Shown here in pieces: positions 8,830-22,152 of a stretch of 64,000 nucleotides of DNA (positions are counted from its first letter, which is position 1; every line of letters begins with the position of its first letter). Both the position numbers and the translations under genes were made by a program. The stretch is from Protoeuglena noctilucae. Taxonomy: Eukaryota. Location: assembly GCA_958009085.1 (NCBI GenBank), contig OY253670.1:1-64000 (forward strand), written 5' to 3'. The notes beneath the pieces were generated by a model that worked only from the letters and a program-made list of their open reading frames with translations, did no database searches and had not been told where the DNA came from.

Positions 8830-11829
8830 ATGGCGGACGCGGGTCTCCAGATCGTCGGGTGAGTGCCGGCGCGCCTGGGCGCTTCGCCCGGCCCCCGGGC
8901 TCGGCGGTGGGCGTGCGAGGGGGAGGGGAACCCGCAGGACCCAGCGCTGCGCGGTCCGTGCGCCCGCCGCGACGCCGGTGGTCTCCCTGTGCGCGTGCAG
9001 GGCGCCGACGTTCTCGGCGGTGGCGGTGACCTTATTCATCCCCTTCTCGGCGCTGCTGTCCATGGCGTTTGCCGCCTTCCTCTGGTGGCGCGTCTCCCAC
9101 GTGAAGGTCGCCGCGGAGGCGCCCATGACTGGCGAGACGCGTGCGTTGCTCCTTGAGGTGCGTGGCGCGAGGGTCGGCCCGCCGCCGCGGGCGCCGGAGG
9201 CGGGCGCGTCCGGGCAACTGTAACCGTGCCGTCCTTTTTCGCTGCTGACCGCCGCCCGCCCCTCCCCGCGCCCGCAGGAGGCGCAGCGGGACGACCAGGA
9301 GGTCGTCAAGAAGGCCCGGGAGATCCAGGTGGCGATTGAGGAGGGCGCCACGTCCTTCCTGCAGACCGAGTACCGCTACATGGGCATCTTCATGGCCTGC
9401 TTCGCCATCTTCATCTTCCTCTTACTCTCCTCCGAGGACGGGTTCCAGACGAAGGCGAGGGGCGCGCGCGGGCGGGGCGCAGGGGGCCAGGCGCAGGGCG
9501 CAGGGCGCACCCGTCAGCGCCGCTCACGCTGCCCTCCTTCCTCGCCCCCGCAGTGGCACGTGGACCCCGACACGGGCGTCACCACCCCCCCCGCGCTGAT
9601 GAACGGCACCTTCTCGGCCATCGCCTTCCTCCTGGGCGCGGGCACGTCCATCCTGTCCGGCTACATGGGCATGAAGATCGCCACGTACGCCAACGCCCGC
9701 GTGGCCCTCGAGGCCCGCCACGGCGTCGCCGAGGCCTTCATGACCGCCTTCCGCGCCGGCGCCGTCATGGGCTTCGTCCTGGCCGGGGCCGGCATCCTCA
9801 TGCTCTTCGTCGGCATCCTGGTCTTCCACGAGGTCTTCGGCCACAACTACTACGGCGTCTACGAGGCCATCACCGGCTTCGGCCTCGGTGGCTCCTCCAT
9901 CGCCCTCTTCGGCCGCGTGGGCGGCGGCATCTACACCAAGGCCGCCGACGTGGGCGCCGACCTCGTGGGCAAGGTCGAGAACAACATCCCGGAGGACGAC
10001 CCGCGCAACCCGGCCGTCATCGCCGACAACGTGGGCGACAACGTGGGAGACGTCGCCGGCATGGGATCCGACCTCTTCGGCTCCTTCGCCGAGTCGTCCT
10101 GCGCTGCCCTGGTCGTCGCCTCGGGTGCGCATGCGCCTGCTGCGGCGGGGGCTGGCAGGGGCGCGGCGCCTCTCTCGCTCCTCTCGCTCGACACCCCGCC
10201 TCTCCCCTGCCTCCCGCAGTGTCGGCCCTGGGCACCAACAAGGTCTGGGTGGCCATGCAGTACCCGCTGCTGATCTCTGCCGCCGGCGTCTGCGGGTGCA
10301 TCCTCACCACCTTCTTCGCCACCGACATCAAGGTGCGTTGCGCGGGAGAGGCGGCGGCGGCGGGGCCAGCGATTGGGCAGCTGCAGCGGCAGAGGCACAG
10401 GCAGCGGCAGCAGCAGTGGCCCCCGCCCCCGCCCTCCGCAGCCCGCGCGCACCGTGCAGCAGATCGAGCCGACGCTCAAGATGCAGCTGCTCATCTCTAC
10501 GGCCATCCTGACGCCCGTCGTGTACTGGATCTCCGTTGGCGCCCTCCCCGAATCCTTCGAGATCAGCCAGATGGTCAACGGCGTGGCGCAGGCCATGGTG
10601 GTCAAGAACTGGTACATGTTCGTGTGCGTCGCCGCGGGTCTCTGGGGCGGCCTCATCATCGGCGTGCAGACCGAGTACTTCACCTCCAACGCCTACCGCC
10701 CGGTCCAGGCGAGGCGCGGGGGGCTGCAGTGCCGGCTGCCTCCGCTGCCATCCGCCCAGGCTCGCTGACGAGACGACCCCCGCGCCTCTTCCCACCTCCG
10801 CAGGTGGTGGCCGACGCGTGCCGCACGGGCGCCGCCACCAACGTCATCTTCGGCCTGGCGCTGGGGTACAAGTCGGCGGTGCTGCCGTCGGTGGTGCTGG
10901 CGGCCACCATCTACGTGGCCTTCTCCCTGGCGGCCATGTTCGGCATCGCCTGCGCTGCCATCGGCATGCTCACCACGCTGGCCACGGGCCTGGCCATCGA
11001 CGCCTACGGCCCCATCTCCGACAACGCCGGCGGCATTGCCGAGATGGCCGAGATGGGCGCCGACATCCGCGAGCGCACCGACGCGCTGGACGCGGCCGGC
11101 AACACCACGGCCGCCATCGGCAAGGGCTTCGCCATCGGGTCCGCCTCCCTGGTGTCGCTGGCCCTGTTCGGCGCCTTCGTCACGCGCGCCGGCATCAGCT
11201 TCAAGGACGCGTCCATCCTTGACCCGAAGATCTTCCCCGGCCTGCTCGTGGGGGCCATGCTCCCATTCTGGTTCTCGGCCCAGACCATGAAGAGCGTCGG
11301 CAAGGCGGCGCTGGCCATGGTGGAGGAGGTCCGCCACCAGTTCCACACCATCCCGGGCATCATGGAGGGCACGGGGCGGCCCAACTACAGCCACTGCGTC
11401 GAGATCTCCACGCAGGCCTCCCTCCGCGAGATGGTCGGCCCCGGCATCCTCGTCATGGGCACCCCCATCATCGTCGGCACCCTCTTCGGCGTCAAGGCGC
11501 TCGCCGGGCTGCTGGCGGGCTCGCTCGTGTCGGGCGTGCAGCTGGCCGTGAGCATGTCCAACACGGGCGGCGCGTGGGACAACGCGAAGAAGTACATCGA
11601 GGCGGGGGCCACGGAGGCGGCGCGCGCCCTGGGGCCCAAGGGGTCCGAGGCGCACAAGGCGGCCGTCATCGGGGACACGATCGGGGACCCGCTCAAGGAC
11701 ACGTCCGGGCCCTCCCTCAACATCCTCATGAAGCTCATGGCGGTCGAGTCGCTCGTCTTCGCGCCCTTCTTCTCCGCCAACACCCGCGACGGCCTCCTCT
11801 TCACCCTCCTCCACGCCGCGCGCACCTGA
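8830..11829 (+). CDS. AVP1: Vacuolar H+-translocating inorganic pyrophosphatase, K+-dependent type (AVP1-like)
   Basis: [68 protein letters not shown] (Ala at the K+-determinant position), [12 protein letters not shown] and [19 protein letters not shown]. Six introns. Confidence 0.98.
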
Positions 11830-11909: not shown

Positions 11910-13109
11910 CTACGCCGCCGGCACCAGCCCCGGGTGGCGCTCGAAGTAGGCCACGACCTGGTCCGACACGGCCCAGACGATGGCCTGCCCCGGGGGGATG
12001 CGCAGCAGGCGGGGGGAGAGGCCCCGCCACATGGCCCGGAGCCCCTCCTCGCGTGGGATGGTGACGAGGGCGTGCAGGAAGCCCCGGTACTTGGGGGCCG
12101 CCTGCCCCGCCGCGCGCTCCTGGGCCATGAGCCGCGTCTTGACGACGTCGAAGGGGCCGGTGGCCACGGGGCCCACGCAGGCGGCGGAGAAGCCGGACGC
12201 CATGGACTGCCACCACTGCAGCGAGGTGCCGTCGCCCTCGTGCTTGCCCCACAGCACGCGGTCCATCAGGTTCTGCGATCGGCATGGGGGGCGAGTGTGG
12301 GGGTTCTGCGCCGGCGCTCTGCCACCCCTCAACCCCCCCTCCCCCCCCCCCCCGCCGTCGCGGCCCCTCGCCTTGGTGTAGAAGAGGCACATCTGGTTGG
12401 TCCCGTTGCGCATCACGGTGGGCCCGGCCCCCGCCCACAGCCGCAGGACCCCCTCCTCGCGCACGATGGTGGTGGCGCAGTGGACGGGCCCCCGGTACCG
12501 CAGGTTCTCGAGCCCCTTTTGCTGCTGGAGCCGGATCTTGACCACCTCGAACGGCGTCACGATGCACAGGGCCTCGGTCACGCCCGCCGCGAACCCGGCG
12601 GCCAGGCGGCGCGCGTCGGTGAGCCGCCCCTCGGCGTCGCGCAGGGCGTTCTGGTAGATGGCGTTGGTGCCCATGCGCAGGTAGTATTTGAGCGTCAGGT
12701 GCGCGGCGAAGGGCGTGAGGCCCTTCCACAGGGCGCGCGTCCCCTCCTCGGCGGCGATCGTCCTCCCGCAGTGCACGATGCCCCGGTACTTCTGGCCCCC
12801 CTTGTCCAGCTGTAAGCGCGTCTTGATCGTGTCCATGGGCTGCAGGAAGCACGCCTCCATCACGCCGCCGGCCGAGCCTGGAAGGGGGACGGACGGACGG
12901 GGAAGTGCTGAGCGGCAATGGTCCGCCGGGGGGTGCCCGGAGGCGCTGCGTGCGCGGTGCGCGTCTCCGGCATCCTCGCCTCCGATCGCCTTGATCGTCG
13001 GGCTGACGGAAGCGGAGGGCGCGGGCGTGGACTGGGGGGATTCGCGTGGCCGCTCGCCGTCCCGGGTCCCGGGGGGATCGGCGGCGGGAGGGCGCGCGTC
13101 GCCCGCCAT
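11910..13109 (-). CDS. SFC1: Mitochondrial carrier, succinate/fumarate transporter-like
   Basis: Three Px[DE]xx[KR]xRLQ/M signatures (PMDTIKTRLQ, PFEVVKIRLQ, PFDVVKTRLM). WKGLTPFAAHLTLKYYLRMGTNA resembles plant SFC1. Two GC-AG introns. Confidence 0.93.
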   Translation of the reverse strand: MAGDARPPAADPPGTRDGERPRESPQSTPAPSASVSPTIKAIGGEDAGDAHRARSASGHPPADHCRSALPRPSVPLPGSAGGVMEACFLQPMDTIKTRLQLDKGGQKYRGIVHCGRTIAAEEGTRALWKGLTPFAAHLTLKYYLRMGTNAIYQNALRDAEGRLTDARRLAAGFAAGVTEALCIVTPFEVVKIRLQQQKGLENLRYRGPVHCATTIVREEGVLRLWAGAGPTVMRNGTNQMCLFYTKARGRDGGGGGEGGLRGGRAPAQNPHTRPPCRSQNLMDRVLWGKHEGDGTSLQWWQSMASGFSAACVGPVATGPFDVVKTRLMAQERAAGQAAPKYRGFLHALVTIPREEGLRAMWRGLSPRLLRIPPGQAIVWAVSDQVVAYFERHPGLVPAA

Positions 13110-13422
13110 GTCGTCGCGGGTCGGCTCGCGCGTGGACCGGGGTCGCGCGCGGGCGAGTTAGGGCCGAACGTCACAAAAGCCACCCCCCAGCGTTCCGCTG
13201 CGGCAAACGAGCCTTCGCTGCGCGGTCTCGCGTCAAGAGGCGCGGTCGCGGGTCGCGGGTGAACTTCTGGGCGTGCCGCAGCACCCGGGCGGGGCCGTGC
13301 TGGGCCAGGATCGGTGCAGGAAACACTGCAGGAAATGGAGATTCCCAAAGTAGGAGAGTTGCCGGTAAATAAAGTCAAGATTCCTTTGCCGAGGTTAAGG
13401 TGGCGTATGGACCACTTCTGGC

Positions 13423-13511
13423 ATCGCATGGCGGAAGCCTCGTAGGTTCGAATCCTACCGACGTCGATGCCCTGACGTCGTGGCCGAGCGGTCTAAGGCG
13501 TGCGACTAGAA
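13423..13511 (+). tRNA. trnS-AGA: Circularly permuted tRNA-Ser(AGA): 3' half 13423-13466, 7-nt spacer, 5' half 13474-13511
   Basis: The 5' half GACGTCG TG GCCG AGCGGTCTA AGGC G TGCGA CT AGA A lies downstream of the 3' half A TCGCA TGGCGGAAGCCTC GTAGG TTCGAAT CCTAC CGACGTC G. All stems pair after rejoining at 37/38, with a long variable arm and G73 typical of Ser. Confidence 0.93.
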
Positions 13512-13515
13512 AGAC

Positions 13516-13528
13516 TTTTGCTCGTTTT
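13516..13528 (+). terminator. Pol III terminator (T-runs) for the permuted tRNA
   Basis: TTTT at 13516-13519 and a second T-run at ~13525-13528, just after the 5' half. Confidence 0.7.
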
Positions 13529-13609
13529 GCGGGATGCGGGACGGACGGGGGACGCGCGCGGGACCGGTTTCACGGTGGATTGGGCGCGCGGCGGCAGCGA
13601 CCCACATCA

Positions 13610-14478
13610 CGGGGTCGCGTCGTGGGTCTCTGGGCACACGGCCGAGTGGGTCGTGCCGGCGCACGCACCCGGAGCGGGGCGGTCTGGGGCGGTCCACATG
13701 AGAGGCAGCCGGCCCTCGGGGGCGCAGCGTGGGCGAGCGGGGCGCCCAGGGGCAACGCTGCGCCCCCCAACGAACGCCGTCTGCGTTCGGACCGCCCCCA
13801 CCGCCCTCGCGTCCGGGCCAGCGTGGCCGGGTGGGCGAGCCAGCCGGGCCGCCTGAGGAGGATGGGAGGAGGGTAGGGAGCGGGGGATGTCATGATTGGC
13901 CGCACATAAGCTACACAGATCGTCATTAGCCTCGGCCTCACCTTTTGTAATAGACGCCCGGGGGTCTCCACGGAGGGCCCCCGCGGCTGCATCGTCCCAC
14001 TCTGGGACGGCGATTCTGCCTTCGGGCGCAGCGAGGGGGCTAGGGGTGCAAGAACCCGGGGTGGGCGACCCCTTTGCCTTAGGGTGGGGCGACCTAGCGG
14101 GGGCGGGCCACGTGCCATATGCACTGCAACGATGGAAACCCCGGGGTGTCAGCTGCCCCGGGGGACGGCACTTCTGCCGCAAGGCGTGGCTCTGAGAGTC
14201 ATAGCACCCCTCGACTGTTGAATCGCTCATCATCATCGCGGCGGCAGCGAGGCCGGAGCAGCCGATTGGGCGTGCGTTTGCCTTAGGGTGGGGCGACCTA
14301 GCGGGGGCGGGCCACGTGCCATATGCACTGCAACGATGGAAACCCCGGGGTGTCAGCTGCCCCGGGGGACGGCACTTCTGCCGCAAGGCGTGGCTCTGAG
14401 AGTCATAGCACCCCTCGACTGTTGAATCGCTCATCATCATCGCGCGAGCGCGGGCCGGCATTTTGGCCGCGGCGGGGC
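13610..14478 (+). repeat. Left arm of long inverted repeat, with an internal 204-bp duplication
   Basis: Reverse complement of 17697-18361. Segment 14073-14240 is repeated at 14277-14444 with a 36-bp spacer. Confidence 0.95.
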
Positions 14479-14676
14479 ACCCCACTGGCGCGCCGCTGTA
14501 GGTGCGGGGCGCGGCCCGAGGAGAGGGCTGGGTTGCGCGGCTGGGGCTGATTGTTGAGGAGGCTGCTCAGAAAGTGTGCATGCGCGTGCGGAGGCCCGCC
14601 GCTGGGGCTGCGCGGCACCCAAGGCAGTTGTTTTTGCACAGTGGGCAGCCGCACCCGACGACGACCGCGCGCAGAG

Positions 14677-15488
14677 ATGGCGAGCGCCGGGGGGGCCGCG
14701 GAGGGCCAGAAGGCGCGGAAGGCGAGCGCGCGGGTCCGCGGGCGTGCGCCGGGGCCCCCCCGCAGTGCGCCGGCCTACAGCAAGGCAAGGCGCTCCGCCC
14801 CAGCTACGCCCGCTTGCAGGTGGCGGAGCGGGCGAGCTGGCGGTGGAGGTGGGCGCGCGAGCGCCTGCACGTGTCGCTGCGGGACGCGGTGGCCGAGGTG
14901 GAGGAGGCCGAGGGGCCCAGCCCGCTCCTCGCGGCGTCCGAGGCGCGCGCGGCCGAGGCGCAGGCGGGACTCGCTGAAGGAGCCCTGGAGGGCCTCGTCC
15001 TGGGGCCCAGGCAGACGTGCCGGCGGGCGGGAGTGGCGGAGGCGGCGACGGGCGCGGGGGACGCCCGCGTTGGCATGAACGTGTGGTGGCCCGACTGGGC
15101 GCTGCCCGGCGCGTACCTGCCGGCCCAGCTGGGGTCGGGCGCGCCGCCGGCGCCGTGCCCGGTCGTGATGTGGGCGGACGCCGCCGGCGCCGGCGCAGAG
15201 CCGGCCCCAAGGCGACGGCCCCTGGACCCCCACCTGCAGTGCGCGGTGGCTGGCCCTGGCGGCCCTGGGGGACAGCGGCCACGTCCTGGACCCCCTTGGC
15301 GGCGGGTGGGCGGCGACGGGCCCGGTGACGTCGACGGGGTAGATGGCTGCGCCGACGAGGCGGAAGAGCTCGTTGACGAAGCTGGCGACCACCCGCTCGA
15401 CGCCCGCCTCGGCCCCGGTGCCCTGGCACGCCTCGAGCAGCGCCGGGGAGATGCCGTGCGCGCCACCGCAGCTGTCGCCTTTTTATGA
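14677..15488 (+). CDS. Hypothetical protein inside the inverted repeats (reads inward from IR-L)
   Basis: MASAGGAAEGQKARK, a putative GC-AG intron 14722-14819, then VAERASWRWRWARERLHVSLRDAVAEVEEAEG... in GC3-rich codons. No recognisable domain, and its 3' part overlaps a minus-strand coding-like segment. Confidence 0.35.
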
Positions 15489-17696: not shown

Positions 17697-18361
17697 GCCC
17701 CGCCGCGGCCAAAATGCCGGCCCGCGCTCGCGCGATGATGATGAGCGATTCAACAGTCGAGGGGTGCTATGACTCTCAGAGCCACGCCTTGCGGCAGAAG
17801 TGCCGTCCCCCGGGGCAGCTGACACCCCGGGGTTTCCATCGTTGCAGTGCATATGGCACGTGGCCCGCCCCCGCTAGGTCGCCCCACCCTAAGGCAAAGG
17901 GGTCGCCCACCCCGGGTTCTTGCACCCCTAGCCCCCTCGCTGCGCCCGAAGGCAGAATCGCCGTCCCAGAGTGGGACGATGCAGCCGCGGGGGCCCTCCG
18001 TGGAGACCCCCGGGCGTCTATTACAAAAGGTGAGGCCGAGGCTAATGACGATCTGTGTAGCTTATGTGCGGCCAATCATGACATCCCCCGCTCCCTACCC
18101 TCCTCCCATCCTCCTCAGGCGGCCCGGCTGGCTCGCCCACCCGGCCACGCTGGCCCGGACGCGAGGGCGGTGGGGGCGGTCCGAACGCAGACGGCGTTCG
18201 TTGGGGGGCGCAGCGTTGCCCCTGGGCGCCCCACTCGCCCACGCTGCGCCCCTGAGGGCCGGCTGCCTCTCATGTGGACCGCCCCAGACCGCCCCGCTCC
18301 GGGTGCGTGCACCGGCACGACCCACTCGGCCGTGTGCCCAGAGACCCACGACGCGACCCCG
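17697..18361 (-). repeat. Right arm of long inverted repeat (665 bp)
   Basis: Reverse complement of IR-L. Only three mismatches were noticed, all CpG transitions. Confidence 0.95.
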
Positions 18362-18460
18362 CTCCTCGCTCCCGCACGTCAACCTTGGCCCTTGGCCCGT
18401 CCTCTCCCACGCCCGTCGGCCTTGTCCCGTCCCTCATCTCCTCGCCCCCACACGCCCAGA

Positions 18461-18650
18461 TGACCTTGGCCCGTCACGCTGACGACCTTGGCCCATCACG
18501 CTGACGACCTTGGCCCATCACGCTGACGACCTTGGCCCATCACGCTGACGACCTTGGAGTATCGTTTTGACGACCTTGGCCAAATGCGCTGACGACCTTC
18601 AACCGACGCTGTGGCGACCCTGGCCCTTTAACGCTGACGACCTTGGCCCA
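18461..18650 (+). repeat. Tandem array of ~9 units with 22-bp period, core (T)GACGACCTTGG
   Basis: Units start at 18481, 18503, 18525, 18547, 18569, 18591, 18613 and 18636, plus a partial unit at 18461. The first three full units are identical: GACGACCTTGGCCCATCACGCT. Confidence 0.95.
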
Positions 18651-22078: not shown

Positions 22079-22152
22079 CACCCCAGGTGGGGGTCGAACC
22101 CACGACCTAACCCTTAGGAAGGGTTCGCGCTAATCCACTGCGCTACTGGGGC
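22079..22152 (-). tRNA. trnR-CCT: tRNA-Arg(CCT), intronless
   Basis: GCCCCAG TA GCGC AGTGGATTA GCGC G AACCC TT CCT AA GGGTT AGGTC GTGGG TTCGACC CCCAC CTGGGGT G, followed by a TTTT terminator. Confidence 0.97.

Follow-up and report, generated by a model that had tools for sequence, protein, structure and literature searches.

Circularly permuted tRNA genes form a small catalogue. Table 1 of a 2014 review lists 34 of them, including tRNA-Ser(AGA) genes from Micromonas pusilla and from the nucleomorph of Bigelowiella natans, and the intervening sequences of permuted genes are given there as ranging from 1 to 74 bp (PMC3978253). Seven permuted tRNA genes are known from Bathycoccus, and others from a Bathycoccus virus (a prasinovirus) (PMC3673656); the nucleomorph of Amorphochlora amoebiformis carries permuted trnS(AGA) and trnS(CGA) (PMC4494063), and permuted tRNA genes are reported in Auxenochlorella (PMC12633428). 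A 2026 review gives a matching range of lineages (PMC13578239). A preliminary description of the locus considered here had named Cyanidioschyzon, prasinophytes, one chlorarachniophyte nucleomorph and Thermofilum; that list is incomplete, as it leaves out Bathycoccus and its prasinovirus, the second nucleomorph and Auxenochlorella.

The gene described here lies in a 64,000-nucleotide stretch of DNA, hereafter the window. Among its closest counterparts is the tRNA-Ser(AGA) gene of M. pusilla, which is the same isoacceptor, has the same type II organization with a 37/38 junction and no intron, and likewise sits in the nuclear genome of a marine green alga (PMC3978253). The two differ in their intervening sequences (64 bp in M. 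pusilla versus 7 bp here, the latter inside the published range), and the host of the present gene appears not to be closely related to any named genome. The B. natans gene is also a type II tRNA-Ser(AGA) gene with a very short spacer (5 bp), and an hBH motif is described for it (PMC3978253); the A. amoebiformis nucleomorph shares the isoacceptor (PMC4494063). These two genes belong to tiny nucleomorph genomes, whereas the present one is found in a stretch of 63–73% GC together with ordinary nuclear genes. The permuted genes of Ostreococcus, Bathycoccus, the Bathycoccus virus and Auxenochlorella are other green-lineage cases, mostly class II tRNAs with 37/38 junctions and, for some of them, AT-rich upstream sequences (PMC3978253; PMC3673656; PMC12633428); Ser(AGA) is absent from the entries for Ostreococcus and RCC299 in Table 1 of PMC3978253. 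Further cases are the red-algal genes from Cyanidioschyzon merolae, whose junctions are scattered (20/21, 37/38, 50/51 and 59/60) and which include both strict and relaxed BHB motifs, and those of Thermofilum pendens, which share short spacers (1 and 7 bp) but come from an archaeon and have their junction in the T-loop (59/60) (PMC3978253). The architecture, a type II tRNA-Ser gene with a 37/38 junction, is thus already known from Ostreococcus, Micromonas, Bathycoccus, chlorarachniophyte nucleomorphs and Auxenochlorella. With its 7-bp spacer the gene matches no entry in Table 1 of PMC3978253, and it is one more example of a kind already established.

Organization of the locus

The order and the fold of its two halves identify the locus as a genuine circularly permuted tRNA-Ser(AGA) gene of type II with a 37/38 junction (see the table below). 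As the preliminary description had it, the 3' half stands ahead of the 5' half, with ATGCCCT between them and TTTT after them, at the same coordinates. The two halves end exactly at the 37/38 junction that it had proposed, to within one base: since 13512 is likewise an A, the cut may shift by one base on either side with an identical product. The long variable arm, G73 and the serine anticodon AGA are those of a class II tRNA-Ser. The gene matches the tRNA consensus and the class II tRNA-Ser marks at T8, A14, the GG of the D loop, T33, the GTTCGAATC T-loop, the long variable arm and G73. No CCA is encoded after G73. As the second half of the tRNA is encoded before the first, its RNA must be cut, circularised and re-opened in order to work.

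Coordinates of the permuted tRNA-Ser(AGA) gene, its flanking elements and the neighbouring protein genes
Feature	Position	Strand	Basis or remark
H+-translocating pyrophosphatase gene, at least two exons	9224–11829	+	
Mitochondrial succinate/fumarate-type carrier, single exon	11913–13109	−	Start roughly 300–560 nt from the tRNA gene
AT-rich TATA-like element (TAAATAAAG...)	13366–13383	+	57 to 40 nt before the 3' half; likely Pol III promoter
Leader	13396–13422	+	Left limit is a guess; 13416–13421 (TTCTGG) pairs with anticodon-loop bases 32–37
3' half of tRNA-Ser(AGA), positions 38–73	13423–13466	+	44 nt; sequence
A38, then TCGCA (39–43), anticodon stem 3' strand	within 13423–13466	+	Sequence
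Variable region, 13 nt with a 3-bp stem (long variable arm)	within 13423–13466	+	Sequence, fold
T arm, GTAGG/TTCGAAT/CCTAC	within 13423–13466	+	Sequence
Acceptor 3' strand CGACGTC, then discriminator G73	G73 at 13466	+	Sequence
Intervening sequence ATGCCCT, 7 nt	13467–13473	+	Loop closing the acceptor stem in the linear and circular folds
5' half of tRNA-Ser(AGA), positions 1–37	13474–13511	+	38 nt; sequence
Acceptor 5' strand GACGTCG (1–7), then T8	within 13474–13511	+	Sequence
D arm: 3-bp D stem, D loop with GG	within 13474–13511	+	Sequence
Anticodon stem 5' strand TGCGA (27–31), loop CTAGAA	within 13474–13511	+	Sequence
Anticodon AGA	13508–13510	+	Sequence, ARAGORN circular call
Trailer AGAC and T4 run	13512–13519 (T4 13516–13519)	+	T4 run a likely Pol III terminator
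Second T4 run	13525–13528	+	Sequence

Detection by tRNA finders and chance calls

When 13423–13511 is given to ARAGORN as a circle, a tRNA-Ser(aga) is returned; as a linear molecule, the same segment yields 0 genes. In the linear window, the sole tRNA found by ARAGORN and Rfam is a tRNA-Arg(CCT) at 22079–22152 on the minus strand, in agreement with the earlier expectation that standard scanners would miss the permuted gene. The Rfam tRNA model does match a T arm and acceptor at 13399–13466, with a score (16.3 bits) that falls below threshold, since this segment carries a tRNA half. All of the 23 pairs in the cloverleaf stems are Watson-Crick pairs. The minimum free energy (MFE) fold of 13423–13511 computed as a circle with ViennaRNA is the cloverleaf itself; its acceptor stem is capped by the spacer, and its anticodon loop (7 nt) runs across the origin of the circle. 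Folding energies are no better than those of shuffled sequences (linear precursor, z = −1.0; circle, z = −0.86), as is usual for tRNAs.

As a control for chance, 21,304 pieces of 89 nt from the window were treated as circles. They produced 30 tRNA calls, of which 13 lay at 13393–13429, 14 fell on the tRNA-Arg gene and 3 were isolated. Among the 13 calls at the permuted locus, Ser(aga) was read in two only, from the pieces cut at 13423 and 13426. With 271,486 pieces of 74–170 nt, wrap-around calls numbered 43 here, 92 at tRNA-Arg and 5 near 15135–15270, in addition to 2 singletons. The 'tRNA-Cys(gca)' that ARAGORN reads from the circle at 15135–15270 on the minus strand was rejected as a candidate second permuted tRNA and is taken as a false positive, because of its 82–85% GC, the absence of a T-loop consensus, the G.G mismatches in its anticodon stem and its inconsistent ends; it exemplifies the chance calls that occur in this DNA.

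Splice substrate at the 37/38 junction

The MFE fold of 13396–13519 contains the T and D arms, the acceptor hairpin and the anticodon stem. The leader bases 13417–13421 (UCUGG) pair with C32–A36 over 5 bp, and C(−1) and A38 make up a 2-nt bulge; the trailer forms no outer helix in this fold. The computed energy is −30.9 kcal/mol for the cloverleaf alone, −35.6 kcal/mol with the 5-bp leader helix and −36.5 kcal/mol when a sixth pair (A37-U) is added, so that the contribution of the leader-loop helix over the cloverleaf amounts to −4.7 (5 bp) to −5.6 kcal/mol (6 bp). A matching 5-bp complementarity, in either register, is encountered at 350 of 127,980 positions of the window (0.27%).

The preliminary description had proposed both that the leader pairs with the anticodon loop and that the third-last G of the leader pairs with C32 as the anticodon-intron pair, giving a BHB-like substrate. 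These two pairings use different registers. The first one is recovered, as TTCTGG can pair with CTAGAA over 6 bp, and C32 then faces the second-last G. Pairing C32 with the third-last G instead would require a bulged U33, and this register, with its 3-nt bulge, reaches only −31.3 kcal/mol, a gain of just 0.4 kcal/mol that is almost neutral. In the best fold, the bulge is of 2 nt and not of the canonical 3 nt, and the leader-loop helix exceeds 4 bp. Given the energies of the two registers, the predicted motif is probably a relaxed hBH with a 2-nt bulge; a BHB-like substrate at 37/38 is retained in this form, and the strict 3-4-3 motif is not. The relaxed hBH is the form assigned to the permuted tRNAs of green algae and nucleomorphs (PMC3978253).

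Flanking transcription signals

The flanks of the gene look like those of a Pol III unit. The TAAATAAAG motif itself (13366–13374, 57–49 nt ahead of the 3' half) lies in a local GC trough (0.43–0.47 at 13320–13409 versus 0.70–0.85 around it) and would belong to the promoter; on the other side, a CTTTTG that begins 4 nt after position 37 would provide the terminator. The spacer, upon inspection, contains no promoter-like, AT-rich or T-run element, and the locus displays, from sequence only, the layout of a single unit, with an AT-rich element upstream of the 3' half and a T-run after the 5' half. The tRNA-Arg(CCT), an ordinary gene (62.7 bits) located 8.6 kb from the permuted one, can serve as a reference: its AT-rich element spans −52 to −35, a CTTTTG stands 6 nt past its 3' end, and the permuted gene shares this layout with it. 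A comparable arrangement of promoter and terminator is described for permuted C. merolae genes and, with less clarity, for those of green algae (PMC3978253).

Functional gene, relic or artefact

An ordinary intron-containing tRNA gene is ruled out, as nothing resembling a 5' half occurs in the 200 nt upstream and nothing resembling a 3' half in the 200 nt downstream. No other halves were found within 200 nt on either side: three of the comparisons were matched or beaten by 616–999 of 1000 shuffles, and in the fourth (5' half against the downstream 200 nt) 399 of 1000 shuffles scored at least equally. Furthermore, no 14-mer of either half occurs a second time in the 64-kb window. The absence of look-alikes in the flanks and of shared 14-mers indicates that the locus is not part of an intron-containing gene whose other part lies further off, and that it is not surrounded by debris of a decayed tandem pair.

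The locus is probably a functional permuted nuclear tRNA-Ser(AGA) gene, of type II with a 37/38 junction, from a marine green-lineage host. The core of the earlier reading as a functional permuted gene stands, being supported by the circular ARAGORN call, the intact stems, the flanking signals, the leader helix and the absence of other halves around the gene; its functional part, judged from the DNA alone, is probable. Since permuted genes are thought to originate in tandem pairs, the locus might instead be the silent, unprocessed relic of a tandem tRNA-Ser pair that has lost its outer halves, with an active linear gene elsewhere. This is unlikely: both breakpoints fall exactly at 37/38, the 23 stem pairs out of 23 are intact, the leader can pair with the anticodon loop (0.27% chance), the unit lies between a promoter-like element and a likely terminator in the manner of tRNA-Arg, and no debris of the lost halves is found nearby.

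The stretch 12400–14600 is present in runs of one organism, coded A, and in marine metagenomes and metatranscriptomes. Contigs of four runs (X1, X7, X9 and X21) were compared over 13000–14000, and X21 gave no match; the contig gap at 13476–13577 in these runs, for which no joints are listed, weighs neither way. A 1,117-nt contig of X1 covers 13000–13458 with 0 differences and spans the boundary between the leader and the 3' half. A collapsed or mis-joined tRNA-Ser repeat in the assembly could be suspected, as tRNA-Ser paralogues share sequence, a loose end occurs at 13433, depth is raised over 13408–13475 and the public contigs break within the gene. Such an artefact is very improbable, given that the X1 contig, which may come from the assembly's own source, crosses the leader/3'-half boundary without any difference, and that a collapse is not expected to yield precise 37/38 cuts, a complementary leader and a terminator. 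Least probable of all would be a split tRNA, of which two separately expressed halves are joined in trans as in Nanoarchaeum: the halves are cut at 37/38 like those of some split tRNAs, but they are just 7 nt apart with neither promoter nor T-run between them, and there is a single AT-rich element before the first half and a T-run after the second.

In four confident exons of the window, serine is most often encoded by TCC (32 of 66 codons, with TCG at 24), which in eukaryotes is normally decoded by the inosine form of tRNA-Ser(AGA). As standard finders miss the permuted gene, an annotation of the genome would seem to be without a tRNA for TCC.

Proposed maturation pathway

What is observed is the order of the two halves, their fold, the leader complementarity and the signals in the flanks; the path of expression and processing set out below is inferred after the published model for such genes. 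RNA polymerase III would start downstream of the TATA-like element and stop at the T-run, producing a precursor in the order leader, 3' half, 7-nt spacer, 5' half and trailer. The adjacent acceptor strands would then pair around the spacer, with the T, D, variable and anticodon stems also taking shape, and the UUCUGG of the leader would pair with anticodon-loop bases 32–37, creating the relaxed hBH motif. The tRNA splicing endonuclease would cleave at the leader/A38 and A37/trailer boundaries, after which a tRNA ligase would close an 89-nt circle by joining A37 with A38. The spacer would be excised by RNase P and tRNase Z, as in the model put forward for such genes (PMC3978253). CCA addition would finally lead to a tRNA of 82 nt plus CCA, whose A34 would presumably be deaminated to inosine, allowing UCC and UCU to be read. 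The gene reveals no new mechanism.

A paralogous 3' half and related tRNA sequences

The loose end of X1 at 13433 corresponds to a paralogous tRNA-Ser-like 3' half that does not occur in the window; its anticodon-stem strand carries an A for a G. The 19 nt that precede this paralogous half resemble the leader of the permuted gene (GACCAC...TC...GGC). Where the latter has the T that pairs with A34, the sequence before the paralogue has a G, together with one extra G; this difference would fit an anticodon beginning with C or U. The paralogue could equally be a second permuted gene or an intron-containing gene, and is a lead only. The similarity of its leader hints at an old 37/38 intron as the source of both leader and trailer.

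A search of metagenome contigs for the exact permuted pattern, allowing a spacer of 0–30 nt, gave 0 loci, and no relative of the gene emerged from these contigs. A 21-nt word from the D arm had at least 118 matches at at least 115 loci in the same contigs. Among the matches listed, 94 lie in linear tRNAs (56 Leu, 17 Ser and 21 others), and none of these 17 tRNA-Ser has an AGA anticodon. The other 24 listed are truncated or degenerate tRNA-like sequences in which no T arm and acceptor was seen, by eye, just upstream.

Host lineage and neighbouring sequences

The window has a GC content of 0.63–0.73 and carries genes for an H+-pyrophosphatase, a mitochondrial carrier, a fragment of V-ATPase subunit a, a Kelch protein and an LSM protein. 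The best relatives of the pyrophosphatase exon are 81–84% identical to it; the best named ones are green algae (Helicosporidium 81%, Coccomyxa 80%), and land plants reach 77–79%. For the carrier, the next match after its own protein is 74% identical, and the best named one is from Trebouxia (65%). No name from the Mamiellophyceae appears among the best 120 matches of either search. A one-gene tree was built from 54 of 120 listed matches (25 named and 29 other, chosen by hand) and rooted at its midpoint. The sequence of the window groups with three others (SH-aLRT 94) and falls outside the named groups of Trebouxiophyceae, Chlorophyceae and Streptophyta, on a weak backbone. In a protein atlas, the only clusters matched carry the label 'Eukaryota'. 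Taken together, the host is a marine green-lineage eukaryote, probably of prasinophyte grade. The preliminary description had suggested a lineage where no permuted gene might yet be reported; the broad group of the host is one where permuted tRNA-Ser genes are well documented.

It may tentatively be proposed that this prasinophyte-grade host stands outside both the Mamiellophyceae and the Trebouxiophyceae, the classes with reported permuted tRNAs, in which case permuted trnS(AGA) would occur in at least four separate green lineages, the donors of the nucleomorphs being counted; this is possible but short of likely. Among the matches listed in a search of the literature, no report associates permuted tRNAs with Prasinoderma, Chloropicon, Pycnococcus or Mantoniella, a search that was not exhaustive, as PMC3673656 on Bathycoccus escaped it. 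Were the host indeed outside the known classes, this would suggest that an early chlorophyte already had a permuted serine tRNA gene, retained from then on, and would help to choose between ancient inheritance and repeated origin of permuted tRNA-Ser genes in green algae. The gene adds one case to the small catalogue of permuted tRNAs, which has grown from the 34 of the 2014 review.

Several repeats lie downstream of the gene. A perfect inverted repeat of 631 nt (13610–14240 and 17731–18361), without any Pfam family in any frame, starts 90 nt after the T-run of the tRNA gene, and its arms are 3,490 nt apart. Further perfect repeats link 14277–14478 with 17697–17898, and 14073–14240 and 14277–14444 are direct copies of each other. 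The depth of the X1 contigs rises from 49 to 1,771–7,231 at 13610, where contigs run into the other arm of the inverted repeat. Immediately beyond the right arm, about eight tandem copies of a 22-nt unit occupy 18415–18648.
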